Shown here: piece after piece, positions 6,545 through 9,500 of the stretch
Layout of the letters: each line of letters starts with the position of its first letter
Numbering within the stretch: the stretch's first letter is position 1
Virus record (IMG/VR): IMGVR_UViG_2778261184_000010
From: a virus
Taxonomy: Duplodnaviria > Heunggongvirae > Uroviricota > Caudoviricetes
Length of the DNA: 11,965 nt
Strand: one strand, 5' to 3'
Notes under the pieces: model-generated
What the model was told of the DNA's origin: nothing
Database searches by the model: none
Seen by the model: the letters and a program-made list of their open reading frames with translations, nothing else
Translations under genes and position numbers: made by a program

Positions 6545-9500
6545 TCAACGAATACTGATGCCGGAAGCAGCCTTTTTGGTCACAATCACCGTACAGTCGG
6601 TGATATTACCTGCCCCCTGATTGCCTTTCTGGAAAATCTTAAACTCCAGAGTGACGCTTCCTCTGCCACTCGGCATATCAATAACCGCACTGTAACTACC
6701 GGGAATGGCCCCTTTAGTTTCTCTGGATGCGATTAATACGCCGTTTTTGCGAACTTCAAAACCATAACCTGTGTATCTCGTGCCTCCGGGGTTATTTCCG
6801 CTCCCAGGATCGTCATACGCCACACCGTTAAAAATAATGGGCGGAATAATGATTTGACGGTCAAAGTTATGATCATCGCTGATAGTGACTGTAACCGTCC
6901 CGTTTGGTGTTTCCGTGTTACCCCACGTACCAGCCTTCTTCGGGAATGATTTGGATACTGTTTTAACAAAATCGCCTCTGACCTGATTCGCCTCCAGCAT
7001 GCCCTTAATCGTACAGTTCTCATTTATCGTGACGTTGTTTAGCGTCCCGGCGTTCGCATTCACACTGCCACTGATATCCGCATTTTTCGCCGTCAGTCGC
7101 CCGTCCGGTGTCAGGGAAAATGCCGGAGGATTACCGCCGCTGGTAATGGTGGGAGCCGTCAGATATTTCAGGAACACTTCATTCATGAATATCTGATCGC
7201 CCTGACCAACAAACATCGGCTTTGTGTTGCCATTCGCAGGATTAATCATCGCAATCCTGTCTGCCGCCAGCAGCACCTGACTCTGCATGCCGTCGGGGGT
7301 GTTCTCAATACCGGCACCGATACCCGCAATATAAAGGCGTCCGTCCTGCATCTGCTGCAGCTTCACAGCCCACATGCTGTTCAGGTTATTATTTGTATCA
7401 ACCTGAACTTTCTGTATCTGCTGGATCGCTGCACTCTGGTCTTCCAGTTTCTTATTGACGGTCTGTGTGATTTCATTGCTGACATCCGTAATGGACGTCC
7501 TGATTTCAGCCAGGTCAGGCGCAAGCTGACCGTTATCAATCTGCGTCCACAGCTCCTGAGCCAGATGGGTTTTCCCTATCTCGCCTTTGAAAAAATCCAG
7601 ATAGCCGGATGCATCATCACTCGGCTGACCAACAGCCTCCACGAATGCCGATTTGCCAACGGTGTTCACACTGCGGATATAAAAGTAATAATCATGGCCC
7701 GGTTTGATATTGATACTGGCGGCTATCCAGTACAGCGCCGTACCAAGATAGCGCGCTGTGGTTTCAACCTTCCTGATATCGGTAATCCGCTTTTCCGAGA
7801 ACCAGAACTCAAACTGTACCGTCGGGTCATAAACGGCAAGATGCGGCGTGGCGGTTATCTGAAAATAGCCCGGCGTCAGCTCAATCCTCGACGGTGCTGC
7901 CGGTGCGGCAATCCGGAACGATACCGACGCCGGATCGCCCTGCTGCCCCCACGCATTTACCGCCCGGACTGTCAGCCTGTAGTTCCCCAGCGCCAGTTGC
8001 CTGAAGCGGTATGTGGTTTCCGTCGTCCGGGCCGTGCTGACCAGCCGCTCACTGCCGTCGTCCGCTGTTACGGTCAGACGGAGCAGGAAGCTCACCCCCT
8101 TCACCACCTTCGGCGTGTCCCAGCGGGCCAGCACCTGATATTCCCCGCTGTCTGCGGTGACTTCGGCAGTCAGGTGTTGCACCGCTGGCGGCGTGACACC
8201 ATTCACCGTGCCGCTCTGGTCGCCGTCAAAGTGCGCCCCGTTATCCACGATGGCCTCTTTTTCCGGTACATGCTGCACGGCGGTGATGGCATACGTGCCG
8301 TCATCGTTCTCACGGATACTCACGCAGCGGAACAGGCGCTGGCGCAGCGTCGGCAGCTTCAGCCCCCATACGCTGTATCCGGCAACGCCGTCAGGAACAC
8401 GGCTCACTTTCACCTTCACGCCGTCGGTGACGGACTGGACCTCCACGCTGACCGGACTCCCCTGCCCGTCAACCAGGCTTATCAGCGTGGTACCGGAAGA
8501 TGGCAGCGTGATTTCACGGTCGAGCGTCAGCGTCCGGGTCTGGCTGTTCACCGCCAGCACGCGCCCGCCGGTGCTGATACCGGCATAGTCATCATCGCAG
8601 ATTTCAATGACATCGCCCGGTACATGGCGAAGCCCTTCGGCACCCACGCTGAAGTCCACGGTCTGCGTCTCCAGCAGCTCCGTTTTAATCAGCCACAGCC
8701 CGGCGCGGTGTGCCTGCCCCCGGCTGGTACAGCCAAAGGCATCCATCTTCGTGACGTTACGACCGTAACGGGCAATGGCCTGCGAGTCCTCCACAAGCTC
8801 TGTCGCCGTCTCCCAGCCGTTATCCGGGTCAATCCAGTTCACTTCAACGGCATTATGGCGGTCTTTCAGGGCGCTGAAGCTGTAGCGGAACGGTGCGCCA
8901 TCATCCGGCATCACCACATTACTGCGGTTATAGGTCCACACCTTATCCGATGGTCTGTCCTGCACGAACGTCAGCGTCTGCCCGTTCCATACCGGCATAC
9001 AGCGCATCGCCGAACAAAAATCACTGAGCACATCCCACGCCTTGCGCTGTGTGGTCAGGTACGCATTACAGGTGATGCGCGGCTCCGTGCCGCCAAAGCC
9101 GTCCGGCACTGACTGGTCGCAGTACTGGCCGATGACATACAGCGCCCATTTATCCACATCCGCCGCACCAAGACGTTTTCCCATGCCGTAGCGCGGGTGG
9201 GTCAGCATATCCCACAGACACCAGGCCATGTTGTTGCTGTATGCTGGCTTAAACGTTCCGTCCCAGATACCGCTGTATTGCCGCGTCTGCGGGTTATAGT
9301 TCGACGGCACCTGCAGAATGCGCCCGCGAAGATGATAATTACGGCTCACCTGCTGGCTGCCGAACTGCTCCGAGTCCACCTGCACGCCGACCAGTGCCGT
9401 GTTCGGGTAGCCCTGTTTCACATCGATGATTTCGGTGTATGACGACCAGAGCGTTTTGTTCTGCAGCTGGTCTGTGGTGCTGTCCGGCGTCATCCTGCGC

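Follow-up and report, generated by a model that had tools for sequence, protein, structure and literature searches.

Gene J of lambdoid phages encodes the tip attachment protein, or central tail fibre protein (gpJ). The copy carried by an 11,965-nucleotide (nt) stretch of tailed-phage DNA (Caudoviricetes; IMG/VR record IMGVR_UViG_2778261184_000010; "the window" in what follows means this whole stretch) raises the question of how a protein that is lambda-like through most of its length came to differ from lambda J towards the C-terminus, and what receptor such a protein would use. An earlier note on this DNA, made from the sequence alone, had read the gene as a receptor-switching mosaic with a recombination junction inside it and had predicted a receptor other than LamB. 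Our analysis confirms the underlying observation in part and supports the interpretation. We consider it likely that the window carries an ordinary lambdoid J allele made of exchangeable cassettes, with a receptor-binding domain of the phage 434 type and OmpC as its most probable receptor.

The open reading frame (ORF) of J extends over 3498 nt without a frameshift or stop codon. Its product has 1165 amino acids (aa) compared to 1132 in lambda J, both lengths being as the earlier note gave them, and to 1137 in the J protein of phage 434. All six gpJ families of Pfam were found above their curated cut-offs and in the canonical order, that is FNIII-A_GpJ, Phage-tail_3, Ig_J, Ig_J_second, Phage_Tail_Tip (aa 872–1000) and Ig_GpJ_C (PF12421; aa 1029–1164, E = 4e-25). 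The order of the Pfam matches, the identity over aa 1–805 (see below) and the position in the operon place the protein in the lambda gpJ family. Its place in a trimeric tail tip and fibre is presumed, the models at hand for the window protein being monomers.

We aligned the window J with the J proteins of lambda, 434, 21 and ev099 and followed the identity in sliding windows along both the protein and the codon-aligned DNA (30-codon windows). The domain names are taken from the scheme for lambda gpJ of Ge and Wang (PMC11101478), where the protein's C-terminal portion consists of two FNIII domains, an alpha-helical shaft, a beta-sheet prism, called the "central straight fibre", and an Ig-like receptor-binding domain that reaches into the porin with its bottom loops. 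The coordinates of the resulting segments are collected in Table 1. The N-terminal segment aligns without gaps and is 98% identical to lambda (785 of 805 residues), 99% to 434 and 98% to phage 21. In block A, the shaft and upper straight fibre, the identity is 98% to phage 21 and 100% to ev099, compared to 41% for lambda and 42% for 434, each of which leaves 28 gap positions in the alignment, and the nucleotide identity to lambda drops to 11–19% in the core of the block. The linker that follows is again conserved (88% lambda, 85% 434, 93% phage 21). Block B, the receptor-binding domain, is 92% identical to 434 (148 of 160 residues, with 12 substitutions and no gaps) and 94% to ev099, compared to 42% for phage 21 and 37% for lambda. 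Along the gene, the DNA identity to lambda passes from 94–100% to 11–56%, then to 86–90% and finally to 32–59%. There are thus at least three identity breakpoints inside J, near aa 806, 946 and 1006, where the earlier note had proposed one recombination junction.

Table 1. Segments of gene J and the adjoining remnant of gene L, with positions in the window
Feature	Position	Strand	Basis or remark
Gene J (tip attachment / central tail fibre protein)	6545..10042	minus	Intact ORF, 1165 aa + stop (ORF list, translation)
J aa 1–805, hub domains and two FNIII/Ig domains, lambda-like	7628..10042	minus	Alignment; Pfam FNIII-A_GpJ, Phage-tail_3, Ig_J, Ig_J_second
Block A, J aa 806–945, alpha-helical shaft and upper straight fibre, phage-21 type	7208..7627	minus	Alignment
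28 extra residues relative to lambda and 434, in shaft (within J aa 836–870), approximate	7433..7537	minus	Alignment gaps of 15, 6 and 7 residues
Conserved linker, J aa 946–1005 (lower straight fibre)	7028..7207	minus	Alignment
Block B, J aa 1006–1165, receptor-binding domain, phage-434 (h434) type	6548..7027	minus	Alignment, Pfam Ig_GpJ_C
Tail gene L remnant, last 72 nt	11421-11492	minus	Right-hand IS1 cuts L 72 nt before stop

These alignments modify the original description of the C-terminal region in several respects. The divergence ascribed to the last ~300 residues is real and much greater than chance would produce, with 48% identity to lambda J over aa 848–1165 and 52% over the last 250 residues, so that no high identity to lambda persists there. 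It does not form a single contiguous block, however, but two (aa 806–945 and 1006–1165), and it starts near nt 7627, about 42 codons upstream of nt 7500, where its beginning had been placed. Both peptides that were quoted are present in J (aa 987–1029 and the C-terminus), but the first part of the sequence offered as an example of divergence lies mostly in or at the edge of the linker, which is 88% identical to lambda. At the DNA level, a blastn comparison of the 956-nt region 6545–7500 with lambda matched query positions 125–512 only, at 76%, and gave no match past position 512.

The extra length of the protein has mainly to do with the shaft. Of the 33 residues by which the window J exceeds lambda J, 28 lie in the shaft of block A and a net five in the receptor-binding domain, and the YLDFFKG and MWAVK anchors lie 69 aa apart in the window J compared to 41 aa in lambda and 434. 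Differences in the length of J proteins can stem from the helical shaft cassette instead of the receptor-binding domain. The AlphaFold2 monomer model contains one long helix at aa 842–888, predicted with low to moderate confidence (pLDDT 55–72), and counting heptads roughly along the shaft gave no useful information. If helical, the longer shaft would add approximately 4 nm to the fibre.

The sharp boundaries argue for an origin of the mosaic through cassette exchange and not gradual divergence, as does the fact that each block finds a near-identical donor type in another phage, block A in 21 and block B in 434. The same conclusion is suggested by the distribution of the two cassettes among phages and prophages, where the type of the shaft and the type of the receptor-binding domain assort independently and all four combinations exist. 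The long shaft is combined with the 434-type domain in the window J and in a dozen sequenced phages that include ev099, ev243, Kati, mEp332, PhiR34_1, PhiR42_1, Ayreon, cdtI, phi458 and phiSTEC1575-Stx2k, which have the same full-length mosaic of 1165 aa and match the window gene in one piece at 95–96% nucleotide identity, with a few per cent of scattered substitutions. The short shaft occurs with the 434-type domain in 434 itself and in the database proteins P0007, P0012 and P0014, which bear the C-terminal tail of the window sub-allele (see below), as well as in HannyBb, ev207 and PhiR49_1, whose alignment with the window gene consists of two pieces covering 91% of the gene. Phage 21 and the database proteins P0058, P0089 and P0093 combine the long shaft with domains of the 21/A8 type or other types, and lambda combines the short shaft with the lambda-type domain.

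One could instead suppose that the C-terminal difference accumulated by point mutation under selection in a single lineage, with no recombination involved. Diversifying selection is known to act on the receptor-binding regions of phage fibres, and the receptor-binding domain of the window J is still homologous to that of lambda, both of which would fit such a scenario. Gradual change does not account for a nucleotide identity to lambda that goes stepwise from high to low, back to high and again to low, nor for near-identical donor types of both blocks in other phages (21 and 434) and the existence of all four combinations. The block structure of J effectively refutes gradual divergence, and we assign it only a very small probability.

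Under cassette exchange, the mosaic would have been built by homologous recombination in the conserved stretches that flank the two variable cassettes, and the linker is a likely crossover zone between them. Lambda particles are redirected to OmpC by natural gpJ C-termini joined on at lambda aa 964 (PMC11338833), a position that falls in this conserved linker. The exchange was not a recent one with 434 itself, as the nucleotide identity between block B and 434 ranges from 86 to 98% across 30-codon windows. Natural variation of the same kind has been described in infant-gut lambda phages, where the J adhesins form four main clusters (Mathieu et al., PMC6969025).

The receptor-binding domain of the window J is a diverged homologue of that of lambda and not a foreign domain. 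Compared with protein structures in the PDB, block B matches the lambda gpJ chains with E = 2e-94 and the entry "A8 gpJ 713" with E = 2e-106. An AlphaFold2 model of block B is all-beta, with pLDDT of 67–96 over aa 1024–1158, and the top ranks in a Foldseek search with this model were taken by the lambda central fibre (8xck, 8xcj) and A8 gpJ (9wca, and 9wcb in complex with OmpC), with E = 1e-17 to 8xck, 8xcj and 9wca and a TM score of 0.68 (normalised by target length) to 9wcb. Lambda J (NP_040600.1 / P03749; structures 8IYK, 8XCK, 8XCJ) thus has the same Pfam architecture and the same fold of the receptor-binding domain, whereas it differs from the window J in a block A shorter by 28 aa, in indels in the loops of the receptor-binding domain and in the use of LamB as the receptor.

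Within this fold, the sequences fall into discrete classes. When the last 218 aa of J were compared by tblastn with 50,697 phage records, the identities were distributed bimodally: 74 records reached at least 90%, 190 stayed below 60% and only 4 lay between 60% and 80%. The group with at least 90% identity includes 434, the hybrid lambda h434 imm21 (OM418627; 90.8% over 218 aa), HannyBb, Kati, cdtI and ev099, as well as the Stx2c phage 2851 and many Stx-converting prophages. Block B is a member of the 434 (h434) class, at 90% or more amino acid identity and without indels; the PGSGNNPGG insertion particular to 434 is kept, and every long loop is conserved in length, although four of the 12 substitutions fall in or beside predicted loops. 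The discreteness of the class and the independent assortment of shaft and domain types bear out the description of the gene as a receptor-switching mosaic. Other domain types do not fit. A lambda-type, LamB-binding domain is at odds with the 37% identity to lambda J aa 978–1132 and the 17 gap positions in that alignment. A domain of the 21/A8 type is at odds with identities of 42% to phage 21 and 44% to A8, and only block A is of the phage 21 type.

A third candidate, an FhuA-dependent tip like those of phi80, HK022 and N15, was judged by the neighbouring gene. A cor exclusion gene located just downstream of J is diagnostic of tail tips of that type. The gene that follows J in the window encodes a full-length Ail/Lom protein (Pfam E = 1e-121), not cor, and the candidate was rejected on this ground.

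The closest characterised relative of block B with respect to receptor use is the domain of 434. Phage 434 uses OmpC, and lambda equipped with the 434 fibre gene binds OmpC (PMC11101478, PMC3509688). The J protein of 434 (UMO75362.1, OL657227) belongs to the same receptor-binding domain class as the window J, of which it is the characterised OmpC user, and differs from the window J in its short, lambda-type shaft (42% identity in block A). Since block B is 92% identical to the domain of a phage whose fibre brings with it a dependence on OmpC, this porin is the best-supported receptor of the window J and most probably takes the place of LamB. The prediction of a receptor other than LamB, which the earlier note had made, is supported in the same way, by 92% identity to an OmpC user compared to 37% to lambda.

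Continued use of LamB, as in lambda, would be consistent with the shared fold and domain family. The low identity to lambda in the receptor-binding domain, the several loop indels and the use of OmpC by the closest characterised relative all point in the opposite direction, however, and make LamB a highly improbable receptor.

That C-terminal cassette exchange can change the receptor from LamB to OmpC is established by the A8 and phi330 proteins. The A8 gpJ chimera (PDB 9WCA; 9WCB with OmpC of strain EDL933) has the same fold and uses OmpC, with 44% identity to the window domain. The gpJ is engineered, but its OmpC-binding domain is a natural one, 81% identical to the domain of phage 21 J (UMO75436.1; OL657228, 3459–6941), so the phage-21-type class of domains probably binds OmpC too; phage 21 J shares block A with the window, including the 28-aa insertion, while its own receptor-binding domain is of the A8 type. 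The gpJ of phi330, a natural protein, likewise has a non-lambda, OmpC-using domain of the same fold, with a reported 35–40% identity to the 434 and lambda domains. As separate lineages, A8 and phi330 do not themselves predict the receptor of the window allele.

Several points weigh against OmpC as the receptor, or against a working role of this particular copy. The literature gave no receptor assay for the window allele or for phages with a domain at least 94% identical to it, and no receptor was found in the literature on Kati, HannyBb, IdasGreatGrand, the PhiR series, mEp332 and ev099; for the lambdoid mEp phages, all that is stated is that OmpC is "secondarily used" among them. Twelve residues differ from 434, four of them in or beside predicted loops. 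A few changes can shift the receptor use of gpJ, and OmpC-binding gpJ variants are specific to particular OmpC alleles (PMC11338833). At least two further domain lineages, the A8/21 type and phi330, bind OmpC with only 35–45% identity; class and receptor are therefore not in one-to-one correspondence, and the assignment depends on 434 as the one member that has been characterised. The models of the structure are of monomers and have low confidence outside the receptor-binding domain, as is to be expected for the straight fibre and shaft of an intertwined trimer. Finally, gene L is interrupted in the window, and this copy of J may never enter a virion.

The differences from 434 suggest another possibility, namely that the 12 substitutions have retuned a 434-class domain towards a different set of OmpC alleles or towards another porin (OmpF, OmpN or PhoE). 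The four substitutions in or beside predicted loops replace Ala of 434 by S1032, Asn by D1078, Gly by R1127 and Trp by G1143, with non-conservative changes among them; position 1143 is Gly in the window J and Trp in both 434 and ev099. The J protein of ev099 is 97.7% identical to the window J and has nine differences in the receptor-binding domain, including I1136V, Q1138H and G1143W. The C-terminal tail of the window sub-allele recurs in database proteins with both types of shaft, which indicates a maintained variant. Among natural OmpC-binding gpJ variants, A8 and 1A2 differ in the OmpC alleles that they accept out of 23, and 1A2 fails on the OmpC of K-12 (PMC11338833). The 92% identity to 434, the lack of indels and the preservation of all long loops speak against retuning, and a change of the receptor protein, as distinct from a change in the range of alleles, has no specific support. 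Retuning appears unlikely to us, though far less so than the use of LamB.

We may nevertheless speculate that the receptor range of the window sub-allele is unlike that of 434, this sub-allele being defined by E1008, N1019, T1028, I1136, Q1138 and G1143, with the change of Trp to Gly at position 1143 located in a predicted loop. It might then accept other OmpC alleles or a second porin, and the common "434 class" of E. coli prophages would be a family of finely split specificities. This is a doubtful conjecture, and OmpC remains our preferred assignment.

With OmpC as the receptor, the protein could work in the manner known from lambda structures. Residues 1–805, the lambda-like hub and FNIII region, would plug and close the tail tip, followed by the phage-21-type shaft and upper fibre with their 28 additional residues, the conserved lower-fibre linker and the Ig-like receptor-binding domain of the 434 type. 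By analogy with lambda gpJ, the fibre would consist of three J chains, whose receptor-binding domains would send loops into the trimeric porin. Porin binding would spread the domains, compact and rotate (twist) the beta-prism and flip the helical shaft; the FNIII domains (strings) would then be released and the tail tip would open for DNA ejection, as in the opening mechanism proposed for gpJ on the basis of the lambda structures (PMC11101478). None of the present results speaks against such a scheme.

The mosaic is neither new nor rare. The closest match to the window J is the gpJ of the prophage at the lambda attachment site attB in the enterotoxigenic E. coli (ETEC) strain H10407 (WP_000515651.1; NC_017633.1 899514–903011), which is 99.9% alike, and SEC470 agrees with the window at 100% over the final 1095 nt of J. 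DNA of the 434-type receptor-binding domain was found in 2112 of 5426 complete E. coli genomes and the same combination of shaft and domain in 1164, and homologous protein fragments come also from E. albertii and Shigella sonnei. DNA of lambda's own domain was present in 98 of the 5426 genomes, always with at least 99% identity, and the examples among the matches listed are laboratory strains such as DE3 lysogens. Among natural E. coli it is lambda that stands out, with its rare LamB-type tip, and a J gene that differs from lambda should not count as unusual when the tip of lambda is itself the outlier. The exchange of C-terminal cassettes in J is textbook lambdoid biology, as exemplified by the h434 host-range hybrids. 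The exact mosaic is already present in GenBank phages and RefSeq prophages, and the same junction has been used on purpose to retarget lambda to OmpC. The window J is a common natural allele that has been sequenced, annotated and used in engineering; the finding is real but ordinary.

The surroundings of J are those of a lambdoid tail operon. The genes K and I are located upstream, while genes for a full-length Ail/Lom protein, a 1113-aa side tail fibre and a tail fibre assembly protein (Pfam matches Ail_Lom, phage_tail_N and Caudo_TAP) are located downstream. The order L-K-I-J followed by lom, stf and tfa is collinear with lambda and H10407, with L cut by an insertion sequence, IS1. Positions 441–11492 of the window are 99.9% identical in nucleotide sequence to the H10407 prophage, with K, I, J, lom, stf, tfa and dgcX as common neighbours. 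On one side the H10407 segment continues with L, M and H and on the other with ybhB–bioA, whereas the window segment ends in copies of IS1. These copies are partial, in inverted orientation and 95% identical over 436 nt (positions 1–440, with insA on the minus strand, and 11493–11965). With their terminal inverted repeats lying directly against positions 441 and 11492, and with insA directed away from the segment, the two copies enclose precisely those 11,052 bp that match the H10407 prophage. Similar junctions carry the RefSeq annotation IS1 family transposase, but identical IS1 junctions were found in none of the complete E. coli genomes, and there was no exact match in species-representative genomes. 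The IS1 pair could have arisen from two separate insertions or from an inversion or deletion mediated by IS1, or it could form a composite unit.

With L cut, the source genome probably harbours a defective or rearranged prophage, except if the remainder of L is located on the far side of the IS1 copy. It is therefore quite conceivable, although slightly short of an even chance in our estimate, that J is now a relic within a defective, IS1-rearranged prophage, with no role in infection and at most serving as a recombination reservoir for lambdoid phages. The partial inverted IS1 copies at both ends, the truncation of L and the nature of the homologous H10407 region, which is a prophage at attB-lambda, would all be consistent with such a fate. 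The 3.5-kb ORF of J is nevertheless free of frameshifts and stops and 99.9–100% identical to the H10407 copy, the genes I, K, lom, stf and tfa are open as well, and the rest of the prophage falls outside the window. The relic scenario concerns the present use of the gene and is compatible with an assembly of J from exchangeable cassettes with a 434-type, OmpC-directed tip; the allele would then be an intact ORF within an IS1-bracketed segment of an H10407-type prophage at attB-lambda, of which the carrier is probably defective.

Near the end of the prophage, at positions 486–1817 on the plus strand, the window contains a gene for a 443-aa diguanylate cyclase with MASE4 and GGDEF domains, which has a GC content of 26–33% and is 99.9% identical to the H10407 gene. 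It corresponds to dgcX, which according to Richter et al. 2014 (PMC4287979) hitch-hikes on lambdoid prophages at attB and shows high expression in the O104:H4 outbreak strain. The IS1-bracketed 11-kb module, with dgcX and the host-range genes J, lom, stf and tfa, might move as a composite unit. This is a separate speculation from that on the receptor range of the sub-allele, and we hold it to be equally doubtful.

In the region 5800–7700, which includes the 3' part of J, promoter-like and terminator-like sites are no commoner than in shuffled sequence, and the antisense ORFs are short ones only. A 515-aa ORF is present on the plus strand at 7565–9112, antisense within J, in a part of the gene with 58–64% GC; it is most likely a compositional artefact.

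The gene stf (2475–5816, minus strand) is 63 nt, or 21 codons, shorter than its H10407 counterpart, the difference being located at about 5007–5018 in a GC-rich part (about 60%). The pieces of the local alignment overlap there by 12 nt, which suggests a repeat-mediated indel. At 1892–3158 on the minus strand, tfa and the extreme C-terminal part of stf have 87–93% DNA identity to lambda tfa and orf-314, while the middle of stf is unrelated to lambda. The orf-314 product is the side-fibre tip of Ur-lambda and a reported OmpC binder. If J binds OmpC as well, both fibres of this type of phage may target the same porin.

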